Positions 43,482 through 58,048 of a stretch of DNA of 64,000 nt are shown here, piece after piece (position 1 is the first letter of the stretch; each line of letters opens with the position of its first letter). The DNA lies in contig JBKDKX010000016.1 in assembly GCA_046344715.1 (NCBI GenBank), positions 4,194 through 68,193 on the forward strand, in the 5' to 3' direction. The notes under the pieces are model-generated. The model was not told the DNA's origin. It saw only the letters and a program-made list of their open reading frames with translations, and made no database searches. Source of the DNA: Alphaproteobacteria bacterium (GTDB lineage: Bacteria > Pseudomonadota > Alphaproteobacteria > Rickettsiales > SXRF01). The position numbers were made by a program, and so were the translations under genes.

Positions 43482-44786
43482 TTATCGACTAAAACTAGCA
43501 GCAATTTCAAGGTGTGGGCTGTAAACAAACTGGTCGATGGCCTCGGCTTGGCTGAGGGTAAAACCAGCATTTTTGAGCACTTTGGCATCACGGGCGAAGG
43601 TGCCCGGGTTGCAGGAAATCATCACCACGCGGCTAATGCCGGATGCAGCAATTTCTTCCACCTGACGTTTTGCGCCCGGGCGCGGTGGGTTTATGACCAC
43701 GGCCTCGAATCCTGAAAGTTCTTTTTGTGAAAGCGGGGCATGGAAAAGGTCGCGGCACTCAGCAGTAAGCACTTCTTCAAGCTGGTGTTTCTTTGCTGCT
43801 TTTTTAATGTGCGATACCATACCGGCATGGCTTTCCACCGCGTGGACTTTATGCGTCTTGGTCATCGGAAAACTATAGGTGCCCACGCCTGAAAATAAAT
43901 CCGCTATTTTACCCTCTTGGGGTATATGCGTACTTACAAAGTCTGTGAGCTTTTGTTGTGCTTCAGCGGAGGATTGCAAGAAGGCATCGGCGGGCAGGGC
44001 GATGGAATATTCCCCTAGCATAATTTCTGTTGGCCTGCGCGATACCACAATTCTTGGTTCCGAATTATTTATCTGCATACTTAAGCGGGAAACATCTGTG
44101 CGTTCTGAAAGTTTTAGCAGTGCTTCACTGGTAAGTTCCTGCTTGAGCACCAGCAGCATATCAATGCCGGTTTCAAGCTCGGTAAGCTTTACGGATTTGA
44201 CGTGTTCCACGCCTTTGAGATCACCGAGTGCTTTGCTGAGCGGAAATAAAAATGACTGTAGCGGCTTGGTAAGTATCAGGCATTTTTCTATGGGTAATAA
44301 TTCATTGGTGCCCGGGCGGAAATACGCCATTTGCGTAATACCCCCCATACGGTATACACGCATCTCCACGCGCCGCCGGCTATTTGCTGGAAGAAATGTC
44401 ACAGCCGCATCCGGTAAATCATGGCCAGACTGCCTGATTGCAGAATGAAACATCTGCGTTTTGAAATCTTTATAGGCCTGCTCTTTGAGTTGTTGCAATG
44501 AGCATCCACCACACGATTCAAAATGCCTGCAAGGGGGTATCCCTCGGTTTTCTCCACCCTTGAGTATCTCTGCAATTTCACCACGTAATTCTGTGCTGGT
44601 TTCTTTGAGCACACGCACGCGCAAGTGATCGCCCACCACGGTTTTTGGCACGAACAGTGGCTTACCGCCGACATCAGCAATGCCGTCACCTAACCCGCCG
44701 AGGGAGGTGATGGTGGTTTCTATATGGGAAATGTTAGGCAATGATATCTGGGTAGACCTGTTGCTCGATGCGAATAATTTCGTCAC
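43482..44786 (-). CDS. 23S rRNA (uracil-5-)-methyltransferase RlmD/RumA family
   Basis: TRAM-like N-terminus, an Fe-S Cys cluster CRHFESCGGCSLQ, SAM motifs DLFSGVGTYS and NPPRPG, and the catalytic SCNP. The true start may be the TTG at 44741. Confidence 0.8.
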   Translation of the reverse strand: MTKLFASSNRSTQISLPNISHIETTITSLGGLGDGIADVGGKPLFVPKTVVGDHLRVRVLKETSTELRGEIAEILKGGENRGIPPCRHFESCGGCSLQQLKEQAYKDFKTQMFHSAIRQSGHDLPDAAVTFLPANSRRRVEMRVYRMGGITQMAYFRPGTNELLPIEKCLILTKPLQSFLFPLSKALGDLKGVEHVKSVKLTELETGIDMLLVLKQELTSEALLKLSERTDVSRLSMQINNSEPRIVVSRRPTEIMLGEYSIALPADAFLQSSAEAQQKLTDFVSTHIPQEGKIADLFSGVGTYSFPMTKTHKVHAVESHAGMVSHIKKAAKKHQLEEVLTAECRDLFHAPLSQKELSGFEAVVINPPRPGAKRQVEEIAASGISRVVMISCNPGTFARDAKVLKNAGFTLSQAEAIDQFVYSPHLEIAASFSR

Positions 44787-44922
44787 GGAGTTGTAACTTC
44801 ATTTTCTTAAAACGTTGACGAGAGAATTCATCCAAGCCGGTAGTTTCGATTTGTAAATCAAGGTCACGGTGTTGTAGACGAAGCGACTCCAGCCGCTTAA
44901 TCAGCATCAGGTCTTCATTCAT
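44734..44922 (-). CDS. DUF465 (YdcH-like) small protein
   Basis: The L..L...H..LD..I and LKK.KL.LKDEI pattern. Confidence 0.6.
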   Translation of the reverse strand: MNEDLMLIKRLESLRLQHRDLDLQIETTGLDEFSRQRFKKMKLQLRDEIIRIEQQVYPDIIA

Positions 44923-45015
44923 GGCGTTTGTTCCGAATATGTAAAATCGAAGGTGATTATAACAAAAAATAGCCGGAAAATCACATGTTTTTTGAGTTAT
45001 TTTTCATGAAAGAAC

Positions 45016-45588
45016 TTAGGCATTCAGCCCTTCCCAACGCTTTACAAGCGTATGGGAAATATCAAATATATCCAGTATACGGCCTACCGTATGACCCACT
45101 ATATCTTGAATAGACTGGGGCTTATTGTAATAAGCCGGCACAGGCGGGGCGATAATTCCGCCCATTTCAGAGACAGAAAGCATGTTCTTCAAATGGGCAT
45201 TGGTAAGCGGGGTTTCGCGCACCATAAGCACCAACTTACGGCGTTCTTTGAGCACAACATCAGCGGCCCGGGAAAGTAGAGAGCTGGTATTAGCGGTAGC
45301 GATTTCCGCAAGGCTACGCATGGAGCAGGGCGCAACCACCATGCCTTCCGTTTTGAAGGAACCGCTGGAAATTGCTGCCGCTAAATCCTGTGGGGAGTAA
45401 AAATAATCCGCCATCGCATGTACCTGTGGGAGGGTATATTCTGTCTCATGGGCGATGGTGATTTGCGCAGTTTTACTTACGACCAGATGGCTTTCCACGC
45501 CTGCTTCGCGCAAGGCCTTCAGCATTTCGATGCCATAAATGGCGCCGGATGCGCCGCTGATACCAACGATGAGTCGTTTTTTTGTCAT
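45016..45588 (-). CDS. ubiX: Flavin prenyltransferase UbiX
   Basis: KRLIVGISGASGAIYG, VVAPCSM and LVLMVRETPL motifs. Confidence 0.9.
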   Translation of the reverse strand: MTKKRLIVGISGASGAIYGIEMLKALREAGVESHLVVSKTAQITIAHETEYTLPQVHAMADYFYSPQDLAAAISSGSFKTEGMVVAPCSMRSLAEIATANTSSLLSRAADVVLKERRKLVLMVRETPLTNAHLKNMLSVSEMGGIIAPPVPAYYNKPQSIQDIVGHTVGRILDIFDISHTLVKRWEGLNA

Positions 45589-45654
45589 ATTCCTAAAACA
45601 CAAATGCGGCAGATAAAAATATTACCTGCCGCATTCTTATGTTATGGGCACTGA

Positions 45655-47709
45655 TTACAGGTTGTTATCAGGCTCGACGTTGCAATTGTCAAAATTCGTT
45701 TGCGCGACTGACTTATTCCAACCTTTCTGGAAGTAAGAGTTAGCGCAGTTTACCGTGGTGTTGCCTGCAATACCGCCCGCGGATGGAGCAAGGTCACCAA
45801 GGTTTCCACCGGCTGCCGGAGCAAGATTGCCCAACTGGTCAGGTGAAAGGTTGCCGAGGTTTGCAGGAGGTGTGCCGCCCTGGCCAAGTACGCCAAGATC
45901 CAAGCCACCACGATGCGTGAAGAACGGATCAACATAAGTGAAGAACTTATCGTTGATCTCGAAGTCACGGATCGAGAGGAACGGCCTGTCGAGCGGATCA
46001 ATAATTTCATTATTGAACGACACTGGAGGTGTGGCCGGAGCTGGAGCTGGCTCAGGTTCTGGCTCAGGTTCTGGCTCAGGTGTAGGTTCTGGCTGCGGCT
46101 GTGGTGCAGGAGCTGGTGCAGGAGCTGGTGCTGGAGCAGGAGCTGGTGCTGGAGCAGGAGCCGGAGCCGGAGCTGGTGCCGGAGCCGGAGCTGGTGCTGG
46201 AGCAGGAGCTGGTGCTGGAGCAGGAGCTGGTGCTGGAGCAGGAGCCGGAGCCGGAGCTGGTGCCGGAGCCGGAGCTGGTGCAGGAGCCGGAGCTGGTGCA
46301 GGAGCTGGTGCCGGAGCTGGTGCTGGTGCCGGAGCCGGAGCTGGTGCAGGAGCTGGGCTTGGACCTTGGCCACAATCACCAATACCGTTTACTGTCGCAC
46401 ATGGGCGGATGGTGCTGCCATCATCACCTTCATGGATTTTACGACCCTGAAGTTCTGGCGTTACACCTACGATAAAGATGTTTTCTTCATCAAGGAATAT
46501 GCCGTTATTATCATATACGCCATTGCTGCGGCCATTGATGATTACCTGGCCATCACCGGAAGGTGTACCGTTTTGCGTGGCATCAAGTGTTGCTTGCGAT
46601 GCAATATTTACGAGGCGATCATAACTGGTGTTATATACATCAGCATCTATCAGTATATCGCCGCCTGTATTGTTTGCACTATGTGAATCTAGCGTTACCT
46701 GGCCGGATGTGCCACCGCTGATAAGAATAGCGTTATCATTAATAGTAGTGTTGGTTGCTTTTGCTTTAATAGAGATATTACCACCTGCTTGAGAGGTGCC
46801 ATCGGTGCGCAAGGATGTCTGGCCAGTATCACCAGTAATAGAGATTACGTTGTCATATACACCGTTCAGTACATCAGCGCTGATGGTAATGGTGCCACCA
46901 GCCGTACTGGTGCCACTTGCGTTTAGTGAAGATTGGCCGCTGATTTGGATGGCATTGGCCATGTTAGCTGCAACTACTGGGCTGGTTACTTCGTAAGAGA
47001 GTAAGCCATCGCCTACAGGGTCAAGCGCAACCTGGAACGTCTGGCCTGCGCCAATAGCGATGTCGCCACCGCGTGCGATGAGCGATGCGCCATCGTTGAT
47101 TACAACGCGCTGGCCTTGCAGCACGATTTCACGGCCATTGCCAACACTCAGCGTTGAGTCTGTAACTGTGACGGTTGCGTTAACTGCACCAGCCTGATCA
47201 TAGTTCAACGTGTTGTTGCCAGCCATGAAGCCTGCAGTATCAGAAATGCCACGCGTGCTGATGGTGAGGCCGCCGCTAACGTTCATGGTTGCGCCATTTA
47301 CGTGGAAGCCGTTATTGTTGACAAGGATTACGCGACCATTAGCACTGAGCGTGCCTTGGAAGCTGGTTGCCGGACCAGAAATACGGTTAAGTGCAATAGC
47401 AGAAGAGTTTGGTTGGAAGAAAGCCACCGTCTGACCAGAAGTAGTGTCAAAGCCTGTCCAATCAATGATTACACGACTCGTAGACTGCTGAATGATGGTG
47501 GTGTTTGGCGCTGTAATGATATTTGCAGTACCGCTTACGACAGTTCCACCCGTTGGATCAGCGTGTACAAGTGTTGGGACAAGCGCCGTTGCAAACGCTG
47601 TGATGCTTGCGATGGCCTTCGCGGAGAGGACAGTGGTGTTCTTGAGCACATGATCCGGCACGACTACCGAACAGATTGCATTTTTCAGGTGTGTCTTAGT
47701 GGTTTTCAT
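45655..47709 (-). CDS. Short two-partner-secretion exoprotein (TpsA) with a haemagglutination-activity domain and a giant Pro-Ala tract
   Basis: TPS domain: GGTVVSGTANI..IIDWTGF..ALNRISG..ANGRVILVNNNGFHV. This is followed by beta-helix-like repeats, then a (PA)n/(PE)n tract, then a ~110 aa C-terminal domain with GNL repeats. Confidence 0.8.
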   Translation of the reverse strand: MKTTKTHLKNAICSVVVPDHVLKNTTVLSAKAIASITAFATALVPTLVHADPTGGTVVSGTANIITAPNTTIIQQSTSRVIIDWTGFDTTSGQTVAFFQPNSSAIALNRISGPATSFQGTLSANGRVILVNNNGFHVNGATMNVSGGLTISTRGISDTAGFMAGNNTLNYDQAGAVNATVTVTDSTLSVGNGREIVLQGQRVVINDGASLIARGGDIAIGAGQTFQVALDPVGDGLLSYEVTSPVVAANMANAIQISGQSSLNASGTSTAGGTITISADVLNGVYDNVISITGDTGQTSLRTDGTSQAGGNISIKAKATNTTINDNAILISGGTSGQVTLDSHSANNTGGDILIDADVYNTSYDRLVNIASQATLDATQNGTPSGDGQVIINGRSNGVYDNNGIFLDEENIFIVGVTPELQGRKIHEGDDGSTIRPCATVNGIGDCGQGPSPAPAPAPAPAPAPAPAPAPAPAPAPAPAPAPAPAPAPAPAPAPAPAPAPAPAPAPAPAPAPAPAPAPAPAPAPAPAPAPAPAPAPQPQPEPTPEPEPEPEPEPAPAPATPPVSFNNEIIDPLDRPFLSIRDFEINDKFFTYVDPFFTHRGGLDLGVLGQGGTPPANLGNLSPDQLGNLAPAAGGNLGDLAPSAGGIAGNTTVNCANSYFQKGWNKSVAQTNFDNCNVEPDNNL
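46031..46357. repeat. Tandem hexanucleotide-type repeat encoding the XP dipeptide tract (mostly Pro-Ala)
   Basis: Runs of gctggtgcaggagccgga-type units. All six frames give low-complexity ORFs (GAGAG, RSWC, ELVQ). Confidence 0.9.
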
Positions 47710-47895
47710 AGTGTACTCCGCAGTCTCATACTGTTAAGGTTATCAGCGAGGCTACTGCCTTTATAATCCGCTTAAACCCGATAGTTAAAATTTCGTTAAC
47801 TTTACTCATAAAAAAGGTAGAGTCAAGAAGTTTCCAAGGAACGGTCTAAAGCAGCAACATCGCCGGGAAATTTTATAAAATCATAAGGTTGGTGC

Positions 47896-49605
47896 CTAGA
47901 ACCGTCCCGTCATGCTAAAGAAAATACGAGGAGTGTTGGCATGGCCACCCTGATTGTTGGCTGGCCGCGTAAGCGGGTCGGCCACTTCAAGGTTGCCTGA
48001 GAGATTTTCGTTGAAGTTAGTGCGTAAACCAACTCCAGCTGAAGCAAGGCTTTGGCTGCCATCCACAGTGTCTTCTAGCCATACACGGCCGATATCATAA
48101 AATCCATAAAGCTGGAACGCCTGCAGTAATGGATCACCCAGCGTTTTCCCATAACGCAGCTCTACGCGGCCTGCTACGCCATGATCACCGGAGATTTCCG
48201 AAGGATCATAAGCACTGCCGAAAGAGGAGCCGCCAACAGAGAATTGTTCCGCAGCGAGCAGCTTATCAAATGAATACTGGCTGGTTGCAGCAGTAAACAG
48301 CGAGAAACCGTGTGGCAACGGCTGCGTGCGCGTGATATCAAAATTCACCTTGGTGAAATCCGCGCTGCCATCAGTGCGGGTGCGATCAGTGCCTGCATCG
48401 GTTGCGCCGAAAATATCCAACCCCTGACTCACCTGCAAATCCAAAAGATCCGCCCCACCGATCTGATCAACAAAGTCATAGGCTCCGCCGGCGCGCACAA
48501 CACGCAGCCTGTCTTTGTTCAGGTTGACATTGCCGAACACGTCAGTTTCGCTGTTACGCGTATCTGCAATGATGCGACCGTTCAGATTTTCCGCGCGTGA
48601 ACGCATGAATGGATGCACTAATTTTGCCTGAAAGAAATTAGAATGGCTATTAATGTCGAGTGATTTCAGAGAATCACCAGGCTTACTTTCCGTGAGAGAT
48701 CCGGACAGCACAAGGCGTGTTCCTTCATCGCTTATCTGCTGTTCATGCTGCAAATCAAAGAAACGCAACTCTTTGGTTGGGCTTGTGGTGATAAAGCGTA
48801 GCGCTGTGCGGTCATACAAGCCAAGCAGTGAGTTTGCCACCAAGGTAGCCGTATGCTGGAATGGGCCTACGAATTTGCTGCCGCGATTATCAATCGTATA
48901 CGATGCCTCGTAAGGTTTTTGTATCATGGTGACAACCATTTCGGCACTGCCGGCAGCGCGGCCAGGGCGCACGAGGCCTTTGGCGGTAGCACCTGGAAGA
49001 TCATCCATCAGAAGTAAATAGCGCTCAAGGTCAGCCACATTTACTGGCTTTTTTGCTTTCAGGCCTTCTGCATATAATTCAAGGCGTTTGCGTGCCTCAT
49101 CACCATCAACCTGGCCTTCAATACGCACATTGCTGATATACCCTTCAACAACATTGATACGCAGTGTGCCTTTGCCGATATCCTGTGCGGGCACCACGGC
49201 CTGTGACAATACATACCCGTTGTCGCGATAATGAGCGGTGATGGCTTTCGCCATATTATTAACATCGAGCAGGGATATCTCCTGACCAATCTTACCTTCG
49301 TATACGAAAGCCAACTGCTCATCTGAATACAAAGAATTGCCTTCAACATTCACCTGCTTCAGTTTGAAGCGGGTTTTTTCAAGTTTTTTGCGCATTTCAT
49401 CGGAAATAGCTTGTTCCTGCTGTTCTGTTTTTAGGTTTGTAGCGGGCAGGGACTGTTCTGGTGTGCGGAAACGCTTTTCAAGGTTTGCCGGATTCACGGA
49501 TGTCGGCACGTTCTGAGCAAAGGCTGGATTCAGAGAGGATGCAGAGGCTGCAACTGCAAGAAGTACAACAAATGTAATCTGACGATTCGGGAGAGAAAAG
49601 GGCAT
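47896..49605 (-). CDS. TpsB transporter (ShlB/FhaC/HecB family, POTRA plus 16-strand barrel)
   Basis: Signal peptide, a POTRA region (LKQVNVEGNSLY...) and a barrel ending in SMTGRF. Confidence 0.85.
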   Translation of the reverse strand: MPFSLPNRQITFVVLLAVAASASSLNPAFAQNVPTSVNPANLEKRFRTPEQSLPATNLKTEQQEQAISDEMRKKLEKTRFKLKQVNVEGNSLYSDEQLAFVYEGKIGQEISLLDVNNMAKAITAHYRDNGYVLSQAVVPAQDIGKGTLRINVVEGYISNVRIEGQVDGDEARKRLELYAEGLKAKKPVNVADLERYLLLMDDLPGATAKGLVRPGRAAGSAEMVVTMIQKPYEASYTIDNRGSKFVGPFQHTATLVANSLLGLYDRTALRFITTSPTKELRFFDLQHEQQISDEGTRLVLSGSLTESKPGDSLKSLDINSHSNFFQAKLVHPFMRSRAENLNGRIIADTRNSETDVFGNVNLNKDRLRVVRAGGAYDFVDQIGGADLLDLQVSQGLDIFGATDAGTDRTRTDGSADFTKVNFDITRTQPLPHGFSLFTAATSQYSFDKLLAAEQFSVGGSSFGSAYDPSEISGDHGVAGRVELRYGKTLGDPLLQAFQLYGFYDIGRVWLEDTVDGSQSLASAGVGLRTNFNENLSGNLEVADPLTRPANNQGGHANTPRIFFSMTGRF

Positions 49606-49825
49606 AATTATAAACCATCCTTTTGAACGTTGTTTTTAGTGTACGCGGTAAATAAGTAACACCGCGACAAGAGTAATTTCTCAAACAATGACAACTAAGT
49701 AATTTTACGCAAACAGTAAATCGCTTTTTATCCACAAACAGTGATTCCGTAAAAGAAGACACGCTGTAGTCATAAAATTATCACAGTCAGGCATCTCAAT
49801 AATTGAGAAGCCTGAGGTAAAAATA

Positions 49826-50278
49826 TTAGTTCATACCTTGCAGGTACTGAAGCTGCTCAACTTGTGCGGACTGGTTCATGATGGCGGAGTTGATGATGTC
49901 AACACTCAGCGACTGTTGTATGGAAATCAGCATGTTGTCATCAAGATTCTGGATAATCTGCGGTTGCAGCAGCTCCTGGATCTGGCTAGCGGTAAGGGCT
50001 GCCTGCGCAAGATTTTCAGTATTCACACTGACGTTTTGCAGCGTATCAAGCCCAACCTGAACGTTGGAGTAGAAATTAAAACCAATCAACATGCCGTTGA
50101 CGTTGATGAACCCACCGCGCATCTCGGCTAGTTCTGCATCATCTACTGCAGCACTGTTACCAAAAGTTTCTCCGGACATCTCATCAAGATCGCCAGCCTG
50201 AGCTGATGACGTGATGAATACGTTTGTAATCACTGATATAGCGAGTGCAAAAATAGCAAATTTCTTAAAGCAAAACAT
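49826..50278 (-). CDS. Small secreted N/Q-rich protein with a Sec signal plus a double-glycine pro-peptide motif
   Basis: Signal peptide ...SSAQA, then VDDAELAEMRGG (E-8, L-7, M-4, G-2, G-1). The C-terminal part is Q/N/I/L-rich. Confidence 0.55.
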   Translation of the reverse strand: MFCFKKFAIFALAISVITNVFITSSAQAGDLDEMSGETFGNSAAVDDAELAEMRGGFINVNGMLIGFNFYSNVQVGLDTLQNVSVNTENLAQAALTASQIQELLQPQIIQNLDDNMLISIQQSLSVDIINSAIMNQSAQVEQLQYLQGMN

Positions 50279-50294
50279 AATATCTCCAAAAATC

Positions 50295-51020
50295 CTAATA
50301 ATATCCTGGTGAATATACGGTATTCAGCGCAACCGCGCCAAGTTGTCCGGTGGTGAGAGCATTACGAAACTGGGTGATGCCATAGGGCTTCCATGAATCG
50401 TCTGAGTTAAAGTTCTTTTTTGCGACCTGCATGTTATTGGTGATGACAAACAGAATGCCATTCCACATGGATTCAAACTCTTTGCGGTCATAAAACACAA
50501 GACCGAGCGTTGGGTCGCCCACGGAAACGCGGTTTTTATCAACGCCTTTTATTACCACAAAATGCAGATAATTTTTCTTGTTAATCAATACAATGGCGGG
50601 AATTTTCACTTTCGCGAGCTTATCAAGTGACTCGCGGAACCCTTCTGCTTCATACCCTATTGCATTGAGATACTGCTTCATATCCAGCAGTGAGAAACCT
50701 TCACGTTTAATTTTTTCTGCGTCACCATGTTGAATCATGGATTCCAAGGCTTCTATTTCAGAAATGGGGTGATCGTAATGATAGGTAAGTAGCGTGGCTA
50801 AAGCGGCTGATCCACAGCTGAAATCATATTTTTGCCTAACGACCTTGACATAGCGGCGTTCTAGGAATGTTTTGGTCTTTACCGTATAGTCACCGCCACC
50901 GCCTCGTATGTAAATGTCACTATTTGCTGAGGAGGGGGATGCAATTGAAGCGGTGGATAACAACACACCTGCCACCAGTGCCTGCCTGAATATAAATTTT
51001 GTGGTGATGGTGGCAGGCAT
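50295..51020 (-). CDS. Stand-alone exported C39-family cysteine peptidase
   Basis: N-terminal signal peptide, catalytic Cys context QKYDFSCGSAALATLL and His context LHFVVIKGVD. There is no ABC transporter domain. Confidence 0.75.
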   Translation of the reverse strand: MPATITTKFIFRQALVAGVLLSTASIASPSSANSDIYIRGGGGDYTVKTKTFLERRYVKVVRQKYDFSCGSAALATLLTYHYDHPISEIEALESMIQHGDAEKIKREGFSLLDMKQYLNAIGYEAEGFRESLDKLAKVKIPAIVLINKKNYLHFVVIKGVDKNRVSVGDPTLGLVFYDRKEFESMWNGILFVITNNMQVAKKNFNSDDSWKPYGITQFRNALTTGQLGAVALNTVYSPGYY

Positions 51021-51032
51021 GTGATTATGTAC

Positions 51033-51392
51033 TTATTGCAGGAAGTTCACGTTGACCGTGGTGGCTTGCTGTATGATCACATTATTTCCACTGTTCTGGA
51101 TAACGCTGGTTAGGCCAGCAACGTTGTTGAGCGCGCCCTCACTGATGCTGTTTGCACCCGATACGTTGTTGGAGGAGCTGTTGCCTTGCAGGTTAGCGGA
51201 CAGGTTTGAAGAAAGCAGGGTTACGTTATTAAACGTACCGCGATATGTATCGAGTTCGGCGTCATTCACGGCCACGCTAAAACTGAGTGATTCATCTTCA
51301 CCAGTGGCCAGTGTTTCTGCCATAGAGGTGACGGGCAGCATAGAAGCTGTGGTAACCATCAGGGTAAAAAATGTTTTAGCAAAGTTTTTCAT
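51033..51392 (-). CDS. Small secreted N/S/Q-rich protein, paralogue of 49826-50278
   Basis: Signal peptide MKNFAKTFFTLMVTTASMLPVTSMA, a pro-motif AVNDAELDTYRGTF, and a C-terminal motif GLTSVIQNSGNNVIIQQATTVNV. Confidence 0.5.
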   Translation of the reverse strand: MKNFAKTFFTLMVTTASMLPVTSMAETLATGEDESLSFSVAVNDAELDTYRGTFNNVTLLSSNLSANLQGNSSSNNVSGANSISEGALNNVAGLTSVIQNSGNNVIIQQATTVNVNFLQ

Positions 51393-51512
51393 AGTCTTTT
51401 CCGTTAGGCAGTGTCTGATTTTTATATTCTTCCTGAGAGGGTGGGGTTTTTTGCAAAACCCCACCATTCCCAAGACTTTTTGTAAGGAGCGAGCTCCTTA
51501 CGGTATCAACTC

Positions 51513-52766
51513 TTAGTTACCTACAGAGATGTCACCGGTAGAGATGGTAACAGCTTGCTGGGTGTTAGCGTTGATGCCGGTGTTCTGGCTAACAGCGATT
51601 ACGCCGTTTGCACCAGTGAACGCGCCACCAGCAACGGTGTTGTCACCGTAACCAGCAACGTCTGAACGACGGTGGAATTCAACGCTAGAGTTGGTAACAG
51701 AAGAAGCGAGGTCAGTGTTGGTGATTTTTACTTTGATATCACCAATGCTTACGCTGTTATCAACACTGCTATCATTGTTGCTGTTCTCAGTTGTAGAATC
51801 ATTATCAATGATGCTTGCAGCGCCAGTTGCCTGGTTACCGCCACCGTTAGTATTGGTGGTGTTGTTGCTAGCAGTTGTGTTGTTGCTGTTAAGAGCCACA
51901 TCAACATCACCAACGGTCAAGCTGTTATCGCTGTTATCGTTGTTGCTGCTGTTAACACTGTTATTGCTGTTATCATTGTTGCTATCAGCAGTATTGACAC
52001 TGTTGTTGCTGTTATCAACACTGTTGTCATTGTTGCTGTCGTTAGTGCTGTTGTTGCTGTTGTCGTTACCGAAGTTAGACACAGCTACATCACCAACGGT
52101 AAGGTTACCATCGTTATCCTGGTTGTTGCTGTTTTCGGTGGTAGAATCATTATCAATGATGCTAGCAGCGCCAGTAGCATTGTTGCCGCTGTTGCTGTTG
52201 CCGCTGTCAGAAACAGCAAGGCTTACATCACCAACAGTCGTGTTACCATCATTGTCCTGATCCTGGTCATTGGTGGTTACATTAGAGGTGGTGTTGGTGT
52301 TAACACTGTTGTTGCTGTTGTCAGTGTTAACGCTGTTGTCGTTACCATTGTCAGAAACATTCACATCGCCAACATTGAGGCTGTTGTTTGTGTTGTCAGT
52401 GTTAACGCTGTTGTCGTTGTTGCTGCTGTTGGTGCTGCTGTTGTTGTTGCTAGCAGTTGTGTTGGTTTCAGAATCGTTATCAATGATGCTTGCAGCGCCA
52501 GTAGCGAGGTTGCCATCATCGTTGTCATTGTTAACGCTGTTGTCGTTGTTGCTGCTGTTAGAGCTGCTGTTGCTGTTGTCGTTACCGCTATCAGCTACAG
52601 ACAGGCTAACATCACCAACGGTGGTATCATTGCTGCTGGTGGTGGTAGTGGTGGTGTTGCCGAGGTTGCTACCATCGTTGTTATCGTTGTTGTTGGTGTC
52701 AGCAAAAGCTACTGAGGTGCTCAGAGCAAATGCAGATACACCAGCGAGAAGTAATTGTTTAGACAT
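51513..52766 (-). CDS. Secreted, extremely N/D/S/T-rich repeat protein
   Basis: Signal peptide; ATGAASIIDNDS occurs 4 times, alternating with (T/N)VGDVxVS..GNDNS modules. The C-terminal GVIAVSQNTGINANTQQAVTIS motif is shared with the small protein at 51033. Confidence 0.6.
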   Translation of the reverse strand: MSKQLLLAGVSAFALSTSVAFADTNNNDNNDGSNLGNTTTTTTSSNDTTVGDVSLSVADSGNDNSNSSSNSSNNDNSVNNDNDDGNLATGAASIIDNDSETNTTASNNNSSTNSSNNDNSVNTDNTNNSLNVGDVNVSDNGNDNSVNTDNSNNSVNTNTTSNVTTNDQDQDNDGNTTVGDVSLAVSDSGNSNSGNNATGAASIIDNDSTTENSNNQDNDGNLTVGDVAVSNFGNDNSNNSTNDSNNDNSVDNSNNSVNTADSNNDNSNNSVNSSNNDNSDNSLTVGDVDVALNSNNTTASNNTTNTNGGGNQATGAASIIDNDSTTENSNNDSSVDNSVSIGDIKVKITNTDLASSVTNSSVEFHRRSDVAGYGDNTVAGGAFTGANGVIAVSQNTGINANTQQAVTISTGDISVGN

Positions 52767-53074
52767 GTTAAACTCCTAGGTTTGTTAAAAGTAATAAAGT
52801 AGTTTGATTAGTGTTTTGAGGGCACATCCAGTAAGATGCAATTAATCTTTTGTTAATTTAACCCATGGGCAACCCTTTTAATCTTTTGTAAAGTAATTGC
52901 AAGGGTTTTCTTATAAAAAATGCAAGGAGCGATGTATAGAAAAAACACAATAAAATCAATTATTTGTGCGCATTGACGTGCTAAATGAATACATTTACGA
53001 CACAATATAAGCCGTGCGGCTAAATACAACTAAAATAGTTGGTTTTTTAACAAGGCGGTTAGCTAAATAACAGC

Positions 53075-54352
53075 CTAGAATGCACCAATATCAAACGTCA
53101 TTGGGGTTCTGAAAATCAGGCGAATATCTGGTGCGTCATCCGTCAAGCCTGCGCTGAGTGTGAAGTTCAGGTTGGTGGTGTCATTGAGTAGGTAGGAATA
53201 TCCTAAATCCAGACTGCCGACCTGAAGGATGGTTGAATTTGCGATGTTTGCATCATTAATTTTGGTTTTGAGTACTGTGCTGTGGCTATAGCCTAAGCTG
53301 ATAGAGCTTTTCTCGTTGAGCGAAAGACTTGATCCGAAGCTCGCACTGATAGAATCGCCAGGTTCAACCTTGCCATATGTAGGGAAGCTGCGGCCAAGAC
53401 TGTGCAGATAGCCTACGTTAGAATAATACACCAGCGGATCAGACGGGAAAATAGCCGTTACACTGGGTTGGAAGGCATAAAAACCGGAACCGGTAGGAAG
53501 TTCTGTTTGTACGCCATTGACTACTGGTACCTCAAATGGACCAGTACCGGTGATGGTTTTGAAGCGCATATTGCCTACGAAATACGGCCAGCCATCCTGT
53601 CCATCATTGATCTGATAGTGTGCACCAACTTCAATATCGCCTAAATCGGCGCCATCCACTGTTGTAAGTGTTTCAGGTGGATTGGGAACACCAAGCTGGC
53701 GTGTAGACGTTGCATCGCTGCGGTATACATATGGTACACGCGCATCAACCTCAAAACGGTTTGTTACGCCATAGCGTAAGCCAACAGACGGTGACAAAAT
53801 GTCACGTTTTACCTTTGAGATATCAAATGCGCCGATGTTCAGCGCAGGGATAATACTGAATCCGCTGATACTCACGCGTGTTGATGTGGAGTGCGTATAT
53901 TCCACGGCAGGCGTTACAACTAGTTTGCCTTTTTGCAACAATACGCCTCCCTCTTCAATCACCGCTGCGATTTCAGGTGGTTTTTCAGTAGATTGTTTGC
54001 GATCGGTTCCAACTTCCTGAGGTACTGGCTTACTATCGGCAGAGCTTGATTGCGTTGGAGCATGAGAATCTTGCTGTGGAATTGGCTTGCCTGTAACCTT
54101 GCTGAATTGCATCTGCAATTTTTCAAACTGCACGCGCTCACGTGCAAAATCTGCGCGTTGGCGTTCCAGTATTTTCTGCTGTTCATCAAGCTTCTTTTCC
54201 TGATCGGCAAGGCGCTTCGATTGCATTTCCATTGCTTTAAGTAGTGCGGATACATCACCATTTTCTTCTTTTGCGAAGGATGTGCTGCTGACGCAGGTCG
54301 CGACGGTGAAGCAAGCGATAAAGGCAAATTTTCTAGAACGCTGGAAAAACAT
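53075..54352 (-). CDS. Outer-membrane protein: signal peptide, coiled coil, Pro/Ser/Gln-rich linker and beta-barrel (FapF-like architecture)
   Basis: Heptad-rich LKAMEMQSKRLADQEKKLDEQQKILERQRADFARERVQFEKLQMQ, a low-complexity linker, and alternating-hydrophobic strands ending in TFDIGAF. Confidence 0.65.
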   Translation of the reverse strand: MFFQRSRKFAFIACFTVATCVSSTSFAKEENGDVSALLKAMEMQSKRLADQEKKLDEQQKILERQRADFARERVQFEKLQMQFSKVTGKPIPQQDSHAPTQSSSADSKPVPQEVGTDRKQSTEKPPEIAAVIEEGGVLLQKGKLVVTPAVEYTHSTSTRVSISGFSIIPALNIGAFDISKVKRDILSPSVGLRYGVTNRFEVDARVPYVYRSDATSTRQLGVPNPPETLTTVDGADLGDIEVGAHYQINDGQDGWPYFVGNMRFKTITGTGPFEVPVVNGVQTELPTGSGFYAFQPSVTAIFPSDPLVYYSNVGYLHSLGRSFPTYGKVEPGDSISASFGSSLSLNEKSSISLGYSHSTVLKTKINDANIANSTILQVGSLDLGYSYLLNDTTNLNFTLSAGLTDDAPDIRLIFRTPMTFDIGAF

Positions 54353-54444
54353 TTTTGTACCTTTTGGGAATATTTATTCAGTTCGCTGATTAACACAGCG
54401 TTTGCAGAGTTTCCACGATAAAAGCCCCGCACGGGTCAAAAAAA

Positions 54445-55482
54445 TCACAGCTGTAGCGATTCTGCCACGTCTAATGCCGCGTAAGTGAATATTGCGCGTG
54501 CCCCGGCGCGCTTGAAGGCAAGTAGGCTTTCCAACATCACGGCATCGCCGTCAATCCAGCCATTGGCGGCGGCGGCCTTTATCATCGCATATTCACCACT
54601 TACCTGATAGGCGAACACTGGAACATTAAAGCTATGCGCAGCTCTGTGAACAATATCCAGATAGGCAATGCCTGGTTTCACCATTACCATATCAGCACCT
54701 TCAGCGATATCCATGGCGATTTCGCGCATGGCTTCATCGCTGTTGGCTGGGTTTATCTGGTAGTTACGTTTGTCAGCTTTTCCAAGATTTCCGGCAGATC
54801 CAACGGCATCACGGAACGGTCCATACAGGCTAGAGGCATATTTGGCGGCGTATGAGAGTATGAGCGTGTTGTGGAATCCTTCTTGTTCTAGAGTGCTGCG
54901 AATCGCGCCAATGCGTCCATCCATCATGTCCGATGGCGCAACAATATCACATCCGGCTTTGGCCTGAACCAGGGCCTGTTTGCATAAAGCTTCAACCGTT
55001 TTGTCATTCACAACAACGCCATTTTCCACAATGCCGTCCTGCCCATGTGAGGTGTAAGGGTCGAGGGCGACATCGGTGATAATTCCGATCTCTGGTACGG
55101 CACTTTTGAGTTCTTTGATGGCTCTGCACACCAGATTATCTTCTGAAAAAGCGAGTGCGCCATCCGGTGTTTTTAGTTTGGCATCTATTACAGGAAATAA
55201 TGCGATTGCAGGGATATTAAGTTTGTTGGCTAACTTTACTCTTTTAATTAATATATCCAATGTGATACGAGAAACACCAGGTAGTGATGCAATGGGGGTT
55301 TCTGTATTTGTGCCTTCCTGAATAAACACCGGCCAGATGATGTCACTAGGGTGTAATCTGTGTTCGGCCACCAGTTCGCGGCACCAGCTAGACATGCGCG
55401 TGCGGCGCAGGCGGGTGGAGGGGAAGGTGATTGGTGACTGGTGGATGGTGGATGGTGGCATAAACAACGCTTGAATATTCAC
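54445..55482 (-). CDS. hemB: Porphobilinogen synthase
   Basis: RLRRTR...LI.PVFIQEG, APSDMMDGR and MVKPG motifs; Schiff-base lysine context. Confidence 0.9.
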   Translation of the reverse strand: MNIQALFMPPSTIHQSPITFPSTRLRRTRMSSWCRELVAEHRLHPSDIIWPVFIQEGTNTETPIASLPGVSRITLDILIKRVKLANKLNIPAIALFPVIDAKLKTPDGALAFSEDNLVCRAIKELKSAVPEIGIITDVALDPYTSHGQDGIVENGVVVNDKTVEALCKQALVQAKAGCDIVAPSDMMDGRIGAIRSTLEQEGFHNTLILSYAAKYASSLYGPFRDAVGSAGNLGKADKRNYQINPANSDEAMREIAMDIAEGADMVMVKPGIAYLDIVHRAAHSFNVPVFAYQVSGEYAMIKAAAANGWIDGDAVMLESLLAFKRAGARAIFTYAALDVAESLQL

Positions 55483-55533
55483 TAAAAATAACCTTTATAA
55501 CCTTGCTATACTATTTTTATCATATAGGCGTCA

Positions 55534-56565
55534 ATGAATTCACCAGTCACCAACCACCAGTTACCATCCACCGCAAAGCGTATCCTCTCCGGCGTTCAGC
55601 CTACAGGTAATCTCCATCTGGGTAACTATCTGGGGGCAATACGTAATTGGGTGGCGTTGCAGCAGGATTATGAATGTTTTTACATGTTGGCTGATCTGCA
55701 TGCCATCACTGTGCCGCAGGATCCAGAAAAATTGCGTGCCTCCGTGCGCGAAAGTGCCGCGGCACTTATCGCCTGCGGGGTTGACCCGAAAAAAAGCGCG
55801 ATATTTCCGCAATCGTGTGTAACGGCGCATGCGGAACTGAACTGGATTTTGGCCTGCCACACGCCGCTGGGCTGGCTCAACCGTATGACACAATTTAAGG
55901 AAAAAGCCGGTAAAGATAAGGAAAAAGCGGTGCTTGGGCTTTATGCCTATCCGGTGCTGATGGCAGCCGACATTCTGCTATATAAAGCAACGCACGTGCC
56001 GGTAGGCGAAGACCAGAAACAGCATATTGAGCTTACGCGTGATATTGCCGGTGCCTATAATCGTTATTACAATCAAGAATATTTCATGTTGCCAGAGCCG
56101 TTAATTTTGGGTGAAGCGACGCGTGTGATGAGCCTGCGCGATGGCAAAAAGAAAATGAGTAAATCTGATGAATCAGATTATTCACGCATCAACCTGACCG
56201 ATGATGCCGATACCATCGCGCTTAAATTCCGTAAGGCAAAGTCGGATATGATAGAGGGTATTTCGTGGGATCCGGAGAATCGGCCGGAAGTAGCCAATTT
56301 ACTTACCATGTATGCATCATTCAAGAATGTAACGCGTGAGGCGGCGCTTAAAGAGTGTGACGGTAAGAATTTTTCTACCTTCAAGCAAATGCTCACCGAT
56401 GCGGCGGTTGCCCATCTTTCGCCGATTACAGGGAAAATGCGCGAGTTGATGGCTGACAGAAACTATCTTGATGCTGTACTCAAAGATGGAAGCAACAACG
56501 CGCGCGCGGTCGCTGATAAAACTATCCGTGAAGTGAAGGAATCTGTAGGATTTCTTGCCTTTTGA
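55534..56565 (+). CDS. trpS: Tryptophan--tRNA ligase
   Basis: HIGH-type motif GNLHLGNYLG and KMSKS. Confidence 0.95.
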   Translation: MNSPVTNHQLPSTAKRILSGVQPTGNLHLGNYLGAIRNWVALQQDYECFYMLADLHAITVPQDPEKLRASVRESAAALIACGVDPKKSAIFPQSCVTAHAELNWILACHTPLGWLNRMTQFKEKAGKDKEKAVLGLYAYPVLMAADILLYKATHVPVGEDQKQHIELTRDIAGAYNRYYNQEYFMLPEPLILGEATRVMSLRDGKKKMSKSDESDYSRINLTDDADTIALKFRKAKSDMIEGISWDPENRPEVANLLTMYASFKNVTREAALKECDGKNFSTFKQMLTDAAVAHLSPITGKMRELMADRNYLDAVLKDGSNNARAVADKTIREVKESVGFLAF

Positions 56566-56611
56566 TGCTCAGTGCAAAGCGTGATTGCCGTGATGCCTTT
56601 CAGACGATATA

Positions 56612-58048
56612 GTGCGCGAGATGCAAACTAAACCTTCTGTTCCTTTTGCGACACTTCTTAAGACCGTGCTTGTGGCAAGCAGCCCGGCGCTCGTTGTGCT
56701 TTTCTCTCTATTTGCCATGTGGGATATGGAGTTTAAATACTTCATATACGGTTATTTGCTCATCATGCTTGTGTCATTGGTGTTTGTGATGCCGTTTCTT
56801 TCTAATATCACAGCCCTTACACATTATGTGAATGATCTGGTACAGGATAAAAGAGTGCAATCGCCGGATTTGAGTTTCTTAAGTAACGTGGGTGAACTCT
56901 CTGGGTCACTGCTTAAATTGCAGCGTTCATGGGAAAATAAACGTCAGGAGATGGAGACGGTTATTACGGAAAGGGAAATACTGGTAGATACCCTGCCGGA
57001 TATTCTCATTATGACCGATAATAATAAAATGATTGTGCGTACCAACCGTGCGGCACGCAACATATTTGGCCAGAATCTGGCGCACCGTCCTCTGCGGGAT
57101 GTTATTCCCAATGAAAAACTGATGGGTGCCATCCAGATGGTAGTTGAGGATTTGCAGGGACAATCAGTAGAATTTCATCTGGAAACACCGGAACCGCGTG
57201 ATTTTCAGGCGATTATCGAACGTTTCCCGATTCCATCAGAAGGCGGAATTTCCATTGTGATTACTCTGACCGATGTAACGCAGCAAAAACGTATCCAGCG
57301 TATGCGCGCCGATTTTGTGGCGAATGCAAGCCATGAAATACGCACGCCTCTCGCATCAATTATTGGATTTATTGAAACGCTGCGAGGGCCTGCAAAAGAC
57401 GATGCGGTAGCGCGTGAGGAATTCCTGAAAGTAATGGCAGAGCAGGCAGAGCGCATGTCTAAGCTTGTTAATGATTTGCTATCATTGTCTAAAATTGAAA
57501 TGAATGCGAATAGTGCGCCAATGAACAAGGTAGATTTTGCGCGATTGGTACGCAGCGAGAAGCAACACTTCGACTGGAGTTGTAAACAAAAAAACGTAAC
57601 GCTGCGCATGAAGCTCAATGATAACCTGCCGCCCACCCGCGGTGATGAAGACGAGCTTGGGCAGGTGGTACGCAACCTGATTGGCAACGCCATTAAATAT
57701 ACCAATCCGGATACAGAAGTGGTTGTATCGCTTAAGCTTACCTCTGCGCTGCCCAAAGATCATGCGTTCAGGAATCTTACACGGGCATTACTTTTTTCAG
57801 TGCAGGATCATGGGGAAGGGATACCCAAAGAACATATCCCAAGACTTACCGAGCGTTTCTACCGTGTGGATACGGCGCGTACGCGCAAAGTAGGTGGCAC
57901 TGGGCTTGGGCTTGCGATTGTTAAACATGTCACCAACCGTCACCAGGCCGTCCTTACTATAGATAGTGAAATTGGTAAAGGCAGTACCTTCAATATTTTT
58001 ATGCCGGTGTACGAAGATATTGTAAATCAACAACAACAAGGCGAATAA
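56612..58048 (+). CDS. phoR: Phosphate-regulon sensor histidine kinase
   Basis: Two N-terminal TMs, a PAS domain, the H-box FVANASHEIRTPL, and N/G boxes. It lies upstream of pstCAB. Confidence 0.8.
   Translation: MREMQTKPSVPFATLLKTVLVASSPALVVLFSLFAMWDMEFKYFIYGYLLIMLVSLVFVMPFLSNITALTHYVNDLVQDKRVQSPDLSFLSNVGELSGSLLKLQRSWENKRQEMETVITEREILVDTLPDILIMTDNNKMIVRTNRAARNIFGQNLAHRPLRDVIPNEKLMGAIQMVVEDLQGQSVEFHLETPEPRDFQAIIERFPIPSEGGISIVITLTDVTQQKRIQRMRADFVANASHEIRTPLASIIGFIETLRGPAKDDAVAREEFLKVMAEQAERMSKLVNDLLSLSKIEMNANSAPMNKVDFARLVRSEKQHFDWSCKQKNVTLRMKLNDNLPPTRGDEDELGQVVRNLIGNAIKYTNPDTEVVVSLKLTSALPKDHAFRNLTRALLFSVQDHGEGIPKEHIPRLTERFYRVDTARTRKVGGTGLGLAIVKHVTNRHQAVLTIDSEIGKGSTFNIFMPVYEDIVNQQQQGE

Follow-up and report, generated by a model that had tools for sequence, protein, structure and literature searches.

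A gene cluster of an alphaproteobacterium that probably encodes a divergent Fap-type secretion system

Introduction

Does a cluster of five co-oriented genes from an alphaproteobacterium encode a relative of the Pseudomonas functional amyloid (Fap) system? The window, the whole 64-kb stretch of DNA analysed here, was confirmed by an ORF check to contain five co-oriented ORFs on the minus strand at 49826-54352. The original prediction read these genes as Fap-like, with components of FapF and FapD type alongside secreted N/Q/S/T-rich cargo bearing a Fap-like repeat, and this reading was largely borne out. We consider it likely that the cluster encodes a system of divergent Fap type that secretes functional amyloid or fibres. 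Published surveys confine Fap to Beta-, Gamma- and Deltaproteobacteria (PMC3792158), in agreement with the range given in the original prediction.

Organization and conservation of the cluster

The five predicted products, with the evidence for each, are as follows.

53075..54352, minus strand: OMP, FapF-type outer-membrane secretion channel, 425 aa (FapF profile and PDB match)
51513..52766, minus strand: p2, Sec-exported large subunit at the FapC position, 417 aa (composition, repeat HMM)
51033..51392, minus strand: p3, small subunit at a FapB-like position, Sec signal peptide, 119 aa (homologues, family logo, position)
50295..51020, minus strand: C39, FapD-type periplasmic stand-alone cysteine peptidase, signal peptide, 241 aa (Pfam, NCBIfam)
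49826..50278, minus strand: p5, FapE-like subunit, Sec signal peptide, 150 aa (leader logo, hhalign, position)

The p3 ORF spans 51033-51473 (146 aa), and its true start is likely the ATG at 51392, giving 119 aa. The predicted 12-16 bp spacing was found for p3-C39 (12 bp) and C39-p5 (16 bp), with gaps of 120 bp between p2 and p3 and 308 bp between OMP and p2. The proposed order is fapF'-fapC'-fapB'-fapD'-fapE', without fapA. A gene order different from that of Fap had been claimed; this holds for the upstream OMP gene, but the core p3-C39-p5 corresponds to fapB/C-fapD-fapE, and the order deviates less than claimed because only the OMP gene is shifted.

Conserved synteny, proposed earlier as a check, was observed: the same gene set occurs in dozens of genomes, and the arrangement is more than a coincidence. 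Among 87 loci compared, drawn from at least 591 species-level genome matches, the p3-C39-p5 triad is present in 77, and the peptidase gene is directly preceded by a p3-like gene and directly followed by a p5-like gene in about 80 loci each.

The outer-membrane channel

Each element of the predicted FapF-type architecture was seen in the OMP.

Residues ~1-27: signal peptide
Residues ~33-85, nt 54098-54256, minus strand: coiled coil (heptads)
Residues ~86-125: P/Q/S-rich linker
Residues ~126-425: beta-barrel, last residue F

The eight heptads have a positions V-M-L-L-L-F-F-F, consistent with a coiled coil. The NCBIfam FapF model aligns with the full-length OMP (OMP residues 13-420, model positions 5-420 of 420; E=7.5e-41), and a PDB search returned FapF as the sole match, the solved barrel 5o65 covering residues 120-418 (E=1.9e-25) with the LPTGSG motif of the OMP aligned and the PTG motif kept. 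These matches establish, at the level of sequence, that the OMP is a FapF homologue. Its score of 140 bits is far below the FapF equivalog cutoff of 700, which counts against the Fap reading.

An ordinary uptake channel for hydrophobic substrates (COG4313/Phenol_MetA_deg), adjacent to the peptidase and small proteins by coincidence, is a highly improbable reading of the barrel. Such a channel would agree with the sole Pfam assignment of the barrel, Phenol_MetA_deg (PF13557, 2.3e-5), with the name 'transporter' given to orthologues in RefSeq, and with the variable position and strand of the OMP gene among genomes; in 29 of the 87 loci it is co-oriented and downstream, like fapF. However, in 75/87 loci an OMP gene is found at a distance of at most 7 kb from the peptidase gene, the N-terminal coiled coil and full-length FapF match are features of FapF rather than of COG4313, and the PDB search gave FapF alone.

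The C39 peptidase

The residues proposed for catalysis are as follows.

Q63: oxyanion residue
C69, nt 50814-50816, minus strand: catalytic cysteine
H153, nt 50562-50564, minus strand: catalytic histidine
D169, nt 50514-50516, minus strand: catalytic aspartate

All four are invariant in a 9-sequence alignment. The protein matches Pfam Peptidase_C39 (PF03412, 1.1e-24), has FapD as its best NCBIfam match (3e-45), and is matched by double-glycine peptidase domains in the PDB at about 4e-9. It had been predicted to be a Sec-exported stand-alone C39 counterpart of FapD, and the profile matches identify it as a FapD homologue with intact catalytic residues. As in the case of the OMP, the score is far below the equivalog cutoff (154 versus 330 bits), which again counts against the Fap reading.

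The cargo proteins and their shared repeat

A C-terminal motif had been predicted to be common to two cargo proteins and weaker in the third, and this was confirmed.

51540-51647, minus strand: p2 C-terminal Fap-type repeat, single copy, residues 374-409 (repeat-only HMM)
51042-51164, minus strand: p3 Fap-type repeat, single copy, residues 104-144 of the 146-aa ORF (repeat-only HMM)
49889-49972, minus strand: p5 degenerate Fap-type repeat, residues ~103-130

The weaker motif of p5 is nevertheless significant against the p3-family HMM (E=7.7e-10). Genes at the p2 position in other loci contain 2-10 copies of the p2/p3-type repeat. The large protein of Acidithiobacillus has four copies by the p3-type repeat HMM and matches NCBIfam FapB at 5.4e-13, and a protein from a Paracoccaceae MAG with seven copies matches FapB at 0.0015. 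Applied to every ORF of a bona fide Aeromonas fap locus, the p3 HMM selects FapB, FapC and FapE and no others. Because multi-repeat members of the same family match FapB, the cargo motif is, by homology, a divergent FapB/C repeat. Three observations count against the Fap reading: p2, p3 and p5 of the window themselves gave no match to NCBIfam FapB, FapC or FapE at E<0.1; when the p3 family was aligned directly by hhalign with individual FapB and FapC proteins of Aeromonas, the probabilities were only 7% and 4%, respectively; and each subunit has one repeat, whereas about 94% of canonical FapB and FapC proteins have three (PMC12392863). The AlphaFold models of p3 and p2 are of low confidence (pLDDT 44.7 and 37.2), and a cross-beta structure is thus without fold support.

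The p5 family aligns with the Aeromonas FapE family at an hhalign probability of 93.6% (E=2.1e-7) over a span that takes in the signal peptide, so that the score is inflated. FapE is also the NCBIfam family matched by the largest number of p5-like members (6/83), and p5 is, as far as profiles can tell, a remote FapE homologue. Homologues of p3 (P0001-P0008) belong to a family of 1369 representative clusters at E<=1e-3, with no Pfam or NCBIfam model. The claim of a new cargo family therefore stands only in part: the cargo is secreted, N/Q/S/T-rich and equipped with a Fap-like repeat, but it is not unrelated to known families, p5 resembling FapE and the motif the Fap repeat.

The large subunit p2 is very acidic and N/S/T/D-rich (N 24%, S 17%; 53 D/E versus 5 K/R), contains six 'xVGD(V/I)xV' and three 'TGAASIIDNDS' units, has zero cysteines and thus no CxxC motif, and gave no match in a Pfam and NCBIfam search. 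Its sequence, predominantly acidic, N/D/S-rich and of low complexity, contains DxDG-like units and only one Fap-type repeat. It would also suit a non-amyloid 'Fil'-type fibre or pilus-like adhesin, in which the chassis of C39 and FapF-like barrel would serve a surface filament or adhesin layer lacking cross-beta structure, with p2 as a calcium-binding acidic adhesin. The Acinetobacter Fil 'putative pilus system', known here by NCBIfam model names only, likewise combines a stand-alone C39 with a FapF-related barrel, and its models FilB (4e-40) and FilC (1.2e-15) also match the peptidase and the OMP. In addition, locus L001 has a second C39 and OMP cluster with unrelated small cargo, indicating that the chassis serves several cargo families. 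We regard this alternative as unlikely, since FapD and FapF outscore FilB and FilC, p2, p3 and p5 are unmatched by any Fil cargo model, and the repeat links transitively to FapB and p5 to FapE.

Double-glycine-type leaders

Double-glycine-type leaders in p3 and p5 had been overlooked in the original prediction.

51234-51269, minus strand: p3 double-glycine-type leader 'VNDAELDTYRGT', V42-T53, behind the Sec signal peptide
50111-50146, minus strand: p5 canonical double-glycine leader 'VDDAELAEMRGG', V45-G56, then F57, behind the Sec signal peptide

The two genes sit on either side of the peptidase gene, and across six frames of the window the strict leader pattern was found only in them. The p5 logo (83 orthologues) shows V/L at -12, S at -11, E at -8, L in 76 at -7, M/L at -4, R in 80 at -3, G in 81 at -2, G in 78 at -1 and F in 71 at +1, fitting the consensus LSxxELxxIxGG as quoted in PMC1538908. 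In the p3 family (86 sequences), L occurs in 79 at -7, R in 50 at -3, G in 76/85 at -2, and G in 32/84 or R in 30/84 at -1. The leaders, like the repeat, are conserved, and Aeromonas FapE carries a matching 'ELADGELAHLRGR' followed by 'YVSSHGISYFGIEF'. Periplasmic FapD activity is required for secretion, the substrate of FapD being unknown, and mature FapE lacks its N-terminal ~70 residues (PMC5557850), the first detected peptide of UK4 FapE beginning at residue 72 (Dataset 6). The leaders of p3 and p5 point to what the Fap protease may cut. Position -1 of p3 is T rather than G/A/S and is often R in the family, which counts against leader cleavage; since a Fap repeat opens with 'ALSNxKGN', which is similar to 'EL..xRGG', the leader could instead be a structural element derived from a repeat and not a cleavage site.

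Leaders of this canonical type, a predicted mature p3 of only ~66 aa, and a peptidase related to the bacteriocin-processing PCAT, ComA and LahT domains could also suggest that the cluster secretes peptides (bacteriocin, microcin or signal peptide); p3 and p5 would then be matured by C39 and leave through the OMP as soluble effectors instead of polymers. The resemblance extends to the acidic, helix-prone segment of the LSxxELxxIxGG leader and to the conserved Q/C/H/D residues of one Pfam peptidase family. The window peptidase is stand-alone, Sec-exported and periplasmic, not fused to a cytoplasm-facing ABC transporter, and its candidate substrates carry the leader behind a Sec signal peptide rather than N-terminally, with a near-invariant Arg at -3 and, in the p3 type, R, T, M or K tolerated at -1. 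No ABC transporter, immunity gene, cysteine or modification enzyme is found nearby, a large repeat protein with the same C-terminal motif is always co-encoded, and the N/Q/S/T-rich repeat shares homology with that of Fap. A peptide system is thus very improbable.

Proposed mechanism

For the favored Fap-type system, we infer the following route. Sec would deliver all five products into the periplasm, where the FapD-like C39 would remove a second, double-glycine-type propeptide. Cleavage of p5 would occur after G55-G56, so that mature p5 begins at F57, and p3 is probably cut too, after R51-G52-T53. The unfolded subunits would exit via the trimeric, coiled-coil-bearing FapF-like barrel and form an extracellular cross-beta fibre by stacking of the single Fap-type repeat common to p2, p3 and p5 (G-x-x-x-V-I-Q-N-S/T-G-N-N-V-x-I-Q-x-x-x-x-V-N-V). 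In this fibre, p3 may serve as the principal or nucleating component, p5 as a minor, secretion-priming subunit, and p2 as a display or adhesin module, long, acidic and N/D/S-rich, that is anchored by its C-terminal repeat.

Comparison with known systems

Curli (CsgA/B, CsgG) also use Sec and then a dedicated outer-membrane channel, through which unfolded N/Q-rich repeat subunits pass to polymerise extracellularly, but their components are unrelated to those of the window cluster. The CsgG channel is a nonameric lipoprotein, and curli lack a protease.

Pseudomonas Fap (fapABCDEF; 5O65, 5O67, 5O68) shares with the cluster a periplasmic stage that depends on Sec, a FapF-type barrel preceded by an N-terminal coiled coil and disordered linker and bearing the PTG motif, a periplasmic C39 with intact catalytic centre, a FapE-like gene directly after the peptidase gene, and large and small N/Q/S/T-rich subunits with a G...G..V.QN.GNN-type repeat related to FapB/C. 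The absence of fapA is also the commonest deviation of canonical operons (PMC3792158). Unlike Pseudomonas Fap, the window has an OMP and peptidase far below the equivalog cutoffs, cargo missed by the FapB, FapC and FapE models, one repeat per subunit instead of three, a p2 made up largely of acidic sequence of low complexity, with different repeat units and no CxxC noted, a p3 propeptide with a double-glycine-type leader, an upstream fapF', and an alphaproteobacterial host.

An equivalent-looking Acidithiobacillus system was classed as deviant Fap as early as 2013 (PMC3792158), where deviant genera have 1-2 repeats in FapB and 4-16 in FapC; a SEED-style annotation was used in PMC10853474. We tentatively equate locus L036 of A. 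ferriphilus with that system on the basis of this one species' locus. It has the same p3-C39-p5 triad, and its large protein, the FapB match described above, carries at least four copies of exactly the p3-type repeat, whereas the window large subunit retains one canonical repeat only.

Distribution

The host class lies outside the published Fap range, as claimed, but this genome does not stand alone: of the best 80 species-level loci, at least 31 are from alphaproteobacterial taxa. Judged by homology, the cluster belongs to a large, unannotated sister group of Fap that is common in Alphaproteobacteria. These alphaproteobacterial loci have hitherto been neither recognised nor annotated as Fap-type, their genes being labeled only "hypothetical", "C39 family peptidase" or "transporter".

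Organization of the cluster

The cluster lies on the minus strand of the window at 49826-54352, and an ORF check recovered all five co-oriented genes that had been claimed for it. These genes, together with the two directly downstream of them, are as follows.

Genes of the cluster and its downstream neighbours
53075-54352, minus strand: OMP, FapF-type outer-membrane protein, 425 aa
51513-52766, minus strand: p2, N/Q/S/T-rich protein, 417 aa
51033-51473, minus strand: p3, N/Q/S/T-rich protein, ORF with its real start at ATG 51392, 119 aa
50295-51020, minus strand: FapD-like C39 peptidase, 241 aa
49826-50278, minus strand: p5, N/Q/S/T-rich protein, 150 aa
47896-49605, minus strand: TpsB, with ShlB and POTRA_2 domains
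45655-47709, minus strand: TpsA-like protein, 684 aa, with a TPS domain, a very long (PA)n/(PE)n linker and a conserved C-terminal domain

The start of p3 was placed at 51392 because homologues show it. The intergenic gaps are 308 bp (OMP-p2), 120 bp (p2-p3), 12 bp (p3-C39) and 16 bp (C39-p5). Upstream of the cluster lie hemB and trpS, and directly downstream lies the two-partner secretion pair TpsB/TpsA (45655-49605, minus strand). This pair was considered as a part of the system and rejected, since only in the two closest relatives (loci L004 and L005) does TpsB also adjoin the Fap-like cluster, and in L005 a different protein stands in place of the TpsA partner.

The outer-membrane channel and the peptidase

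The OMP was found to match the NCBIfam FapF model with residues 13-420 against model positions 5-420 of 420 (E=7.5e-41). Its score of 140 bits lies below the equivalog cutoff of 700, and the protein is thus a FapF homologue, not an NCBI-defined equivalog. A PDB sequence search returned FapF only (5o65 and related entries; E=1.9e-25, residues 120-418), with the LPTG motif of the OMP aligned in the match. Residues 29-90 contain eight heptads with V-M-L-L-L-F-F-F at the a positions, followed by a P/Q/S-rich linker and a barrel with Phe as its last residue. The predicted architecture is that of FapF, an outer-membrane barrel preceded by an N-terminal periplasmic coiled coil and a linker, as the original prediction held. 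The only Pfam match of the OMP was a weak one to PF13557 (Phenol_MetA_deg, 2.3e-5), and an uptake channel of the COG4313/Phenol_MetA_deg type was therefore weighed. Such a channel is a PF13557 barrel with neither a coiled coil nor an associated C39 peptidase; the coiled coil of the OMP, its full-length FapF match and its conserved synteny with the C39 peptidase all argue against this assignment, which was rejected in favour of the FapF homologue.

The C39 peptidase matches Pfam Peptidase_C39 (1e-24), and its best NCBIfam matches are FapD (3e-45) and then FilB (4e-40), the FapD score being 154 bits against a cutoff of 330. Residues Q63, C69, H153 and D169 are invariant over nine diverse relatives, including genuine Aeromonas FapD, and an N-terminal signal peptide is visible. 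The protein is a stand-alone C39 peptidase that retains the catalytic Cys and His and is predicted to be exported by Sec, and the equation with FapD made at the outset is upheld by the best NCBIfam match and the invariant catalytic residues. A PCAT peptidase, in contrast, is fused to its cognate ABC exporter, whereas the present one is a stand-alone 241-aa protein with a signal peptide, and ORF and Pfam annotation found no ABC transporter in the cluster.

p5 as a FapE-like protein

The p5 gene lies directly downstream of the C39 gene (16-bp gap), as fapE does to fapD. The p5 protein of the window had no NCBIfam FapE match; FapE was the family matched by the most p5-like members, with weak matches for 6 of 83 orthologues (best E 0.0019). 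The genuine fap operon of Aeromonas caviae (locus L010), in which NCBIfam calls FapB, FapC, FapD, FapE and FapF, served as the positive control. When 83 p5-like proteins were aligned by hhalign with Aeromonas-type FapE (13 sequences), the probability was 93.6% (E=2.1e-7) over the N-terminal 55 columns; a caveat is that the signal peptide is among these columns and raises the score. With a slash at the predicted cleavage site, Aeromonas FapE reads '...FAPELADGELAHLRGR/YVSSHGISYFGIEF' and p5 of the window reads '...AAVDDAELAEMRGG/FINVNGMLIGFNF', so that genuine FapE aligns to the double-glycine leader of p5. On this evidence, p5 was concluded to be a likely remote FapE homologue in the FapE position. 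Pseudomonas FapE was not recovered, a homologue search seeded with Aeromonas FapE having given Aeromonas-type sequences only, and tblastn against plasmids returned the query itself as its sole match.

Double-glycine leaders and the proposed substrate of FapD

The classical double-glycine leader consensus is LSxxELxxIxGG (quoted in PMC1538908), in which -12, -7, -4, -2 and -1 are the conserved positions (-1 being the last leader residue and +1 the first mature residue). The p5 protein has all of these, reading V45-D-D-A-E49-L50-A-E-M53-R-G55-G56/F57. Across 83 orthologues the leader sits ~15-30 residues past the Sec cleavage site, and the near-perfect form ending in GG/F is kept in ~80 of 83 species. 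The p3 orthologues have a related motif, and p3 of the window matches the consensus except for T at -1. When the strict pattern was searched in six frames of the 64-kb window, only the p3 and p5 genes were found, both flanking the peptidase gene.

Leader positions in p5 and p3 orthologues, with counts in parentheses
p5 (n=83): -12 V/L; -11 S; -8 E (43); -7 L (76); -4 M/L; -3 R (80); -2 G (81); -1 G (78); +1 F (71)
p3: -12 V/L/M; -8 E; -7 L (79/86); -3 R (50/86); -2 G (76/85); -1 G (32/84) or R (30/84)

These leaders, shown by 83 p5 and 86 p3 orthologues, are a new point of the analysis; the earlier account, substantially right otherwise, had missed them. Secretion requires FapD to be catalytically active in the periplasm (Rouse et al., PMC5557850). 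No canonical C39 site is evident in Pseudomonas Fap proteins (Rouse et al., PMC5557850), and the substrate of FapD has therefore been left open in the Fap literature since 2017 (PMC5557850, PMC6173800). FapE alone was found to lack its first ~70 residues in vivo in UK4 (Rouse et al., PMC5557850), the first UK4 FapE peptide beginning at residue 72 with 'MHIDSS...' (PMC5557850 Dataset 6), which lends indirect support to cleavage after GG by the cognate peptidase. This start appears to resemble the 'G-M/L-x-I/V-x-F' segment of p5 proteins, 6-10 residues after the GG site.

Read most economically, these sequences suggest that a double-glycine propeptide is cleaved from FapE-type subunits by FapD-type peptidases, and in the present clade from small FapB-like subunits as well. 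The start of the Fap repeat, 'ALSNxKGN', also resembles 'EL..xRGG', and the leader motif may possibly be of structural, not proteolytic, origin. For propeptide removal by FapD, the GG/F of the p5 leader gives a precise prediction of cleavage that can be tested by mutation.

A broader proposal is that the clade exposes the recognition rule, long sought, of periplasmic C39 peptidases of the FapD type. FapE-like subunits, and in this clade FapB-like ones too, would have an N-terminus in two stages, a Sec signal and then a canonical double-glycine propeptide, periplasmic removal of the propeptide would license export through FapF, and the combination of Sec signal, GG leader, periplasmic C39 peptidase and FapF-like barrel would be a general, widespread outer-membrane secretion route for several unrelated cargo families. 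We give this proposal an even chance of being correct.

A second cluster in the MAG of locus L001 (4799-8349) begins with genes for three small proteins (148, 96-110 and 121 aa) that have a Sec signal and a further leader of the double-glycine type, 'L(S/T)xxQMDxV(T/S)AG(G)'. Next come a FilB-like C39 peptidase and an OMP with weak likeness to FapF. This arrangement suggests that a chassis of periplasmic C39 peptidase and barrel serves several cargo families, of which the QMDxVTAG(G) proteins would be one unrelated example. Around ten related loci encode an extra small protein, absent from the window, in which a segment 'L..xR(G/A).' resembles a leader and the motif '(V/A)ILWDE' is invariant (L007 3338-3736, L036 2754-3173, L013 2320-2670, L016 4974-5390 and L020 3109-3588; further L030, L051, L061 and L076).

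The predicted secreted proteins p2 and p3 and their repeat

No Pfam or NCBIfam match was found for p2, p3 or p5, and p2 and p3 gave no FapB or FapC match in NCBIfam at E<0.1. A repeat-only HMM detected one copy of the C-terminal motif in p2 and one in p3; two subunits with three imperfect ~39-residue FapBC repeats, as in FapB and FapC, were not found. The motif had been likened to the Fap repeat. When the p3 family was compared directly by hhalign with FapB and FapC of Aeromonas as single sequences, the match was not significant (7% and 4% probability) and is not evidence by itself, so homology was argued via intermediates, through which the likeness holds. Large proteins of other loci contain 2-10 repeat copies. 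Among these, a partial protein from Acidithiobacillus ferriphilus with four copies matches NCBIfam FapB at 5.4e-13, and a Paracoccaceae MAG protein with seven copies does so at 0.0015. When the p3-family HMM was run on all six-frame ORFs of the Aeromonas locus, only FapB (6.6e-4), FapC (1.4e-3) and FapE (5e-3) were matched. In addition, the p3-family consensus, G-[ILV]-x-T-V-I-Q-N-[TS]-G-N-N-V-x-I-Q-N-A-T-x-V-N-V, is similar to the one published for FapB repeat 3, GΨΨQΨNQ*aGgN*N (PMC12392863). The C-terminal motif was concluded to be a probable divergent Fap repeat, an assignment that is transitive, not direct, for the window's own proteins. The large subunit of L007 (4190-6490, a Kiloniellaceae MAG) has ~9 copies of a longer motif, 'F.NQVINQNNINSGINSAQQGANT.AIA', that the repeat HMM missed; the true repeat diversity of the clade thus exceeds the counts given here.

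The p2 protein is rich in N (24%), S (17%), T (12%) and D (12%), has 53 acidic and 5 basic residues, and contains zero cysteines. It comprises six 'xVGD(V/I)xV' units, three 'TGAASIIDNDS' units and one canonical C-terminal repeat. Its recurring 'QDNDGN-x-TVGDVxV' units have a DxDG pattern like that of calcium-binding loops, and its C-terminal 'GGAFTGANG' mimics the GAFTGA signature of sigma-54 activators. In the proposed model, p2 would act as a display or adhesin module that its C-terminal repeat anchors to the fibre; this is the weakest step of the model. AlphaFold2 models of p3 (8-sequence alignment, pLDDT 44.7) and p2 (single sequence, pLDDT 37.2) were uninformative.

Distribution and synteny

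A word-indexed search with p3 recovered 8 relatives only. The same gene set was found together with the hemB/trpS neighbourhood in the two close relatives L004 and L005, and also in the distant MAG L001; the cluster is not unique to this genome. A peptidase-seeded search gave >7000 protein clusters, and at least 591 loci were confirmed in GTDB species representatives. ORFs were called in 92 loci, HMMs were built iteratively, and 87 non-redundant loci were counted. In 77 of the 87, the peptidase gene is immediately flanked by a p3-like gene upstream and a p5-like gene downstream, and in 75 a FapF-like OMP gene lies within 7 kb of the peptidase gene, which answers the call for conserved synteny in related genomes. 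The OMP gene is downstream on the opposite strand in 32 loci and on the same strand in 29; it is upstream on the same strand in 7 (including the window) and on the opposite strand in 6.

The system occurs in at least 31 alphaproteobacterial taxa, and the idea of this genome as a lone new host lineage was overstated. Among the matches listed, an 'uncultured Rickettsiales bacterium' MAG stands nearest, at 61% identity and with the flanking genes shared; further hosts are Paracoccaceae, Sneathiellales, Sphingomonas, Sphingobium, Novosphingobium, Brevundimonas, Asticcacaulis, Phenylobacterium, Magnetospirillum and Pelagibius. Cultured alphaproteobacterial hosts occur in Brevundimonas, Sphingomonas, Novosphingobium, Asticcacaulis, Magnetospirillum and Croceicoccus. 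Many Gamma- and Betaproteobacteria and Geobacterales are also hosts, as is Cupriavidus metallidurans CH34.

An exhaustive profile search with the p3 alignment gave 1369 representative clusters at E<=1e-3 and 803 at E<=1e-10. Since this family has no Pfam or NCBIfam model, the biofilm-matrix and adhesion potential of its hosts is missed. In RefSeq, the Croceicoccus marinus counterparts are named 'hypothetical protein', 'C39 family peptidase' and 'transporter'.

The megaplasmid of Indioceanicola profundi (L009, 676-7876) encodes a 1612-aa protein with seven p3-type repeats, divergent from an adjoining FapF-like OMP gene and followed by type II secretion pseudopilin-like genes. No C39 peptidase was noticed among the ORFs listed for this 15-kb stretch, and the locus may be a variant without a linked peptidase.

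What distinguishes the cluster from canonical Fap systems?

Homology of four of the five parts and the gene order round the peptidase place the cluster in the Fap superfamily, and it is predicted to work like a Fap system. The Fap reading of the original prediction was on these grounds substantially right, the novelty of the cargo having been overstated. Amyloid formation, cleavage and the roles of the subunits are predicted features. The cluster departs from a strict definition of Fap in four respects: 1) the NCBI equivalog cutoffs are not reached, 2) the cargo is invisible to curated models, 3) a three-repeat FapB and FapC are absent, and 4) FapA is absent, no match to it having been found in the cluster with NCBIfam. 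It is therefore regarded as a widespread, unannotated sister clade, not as a categorically new system. The absence of FapA is no bar to Fap membership, since accepted operons often lack it (PMC3792158).

Published surveys place Fap in Beta-, Gamma- and Deltaproteobacteria only (PMC3792158); deviant systems were listed for Acidithiobacillus and Vibrio, whose FapB has 1-2 repeats and whose FapC has 4-16 (Dueholm et al., PMC3792158). In the same work, 96% of FapD-HMM hits and 69% of FapF-HMM hits fell outside recognised fap operons (Dueholm et al., PMC3792158), and most FapD and FapF hits were treated as 'false positives' (PMC3792158). These probably correspond largely to the present clade, and would form a coherent sister system that has FapB/C/E-like cargo of its own. 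No prior description of the clade was found in the literature on Fil, on Fap in Alphaproteobacteria or on periplasmic C39 peptidases with double-glycine leaders.

Regulatory features

A promoter and terminator scan of 49.5-54.6 kb gave fewer promoter-like sites than shuffled sequences and none that were usable, and no sigma-54 promoter was evident on reading the two intergenic regions upstream of the OMP gene and p2. A sigma-54 activator, called by GAFTGA and Walker A motifs, was not found within positions 44000-58000 of the window. Such an activator does lie within 7 kb of the cluster in 24 of the 87 related loci (e.g., L007 9915-11063 and L008 9600-10937), which points to possible sigma-54 control in some members of the clade.
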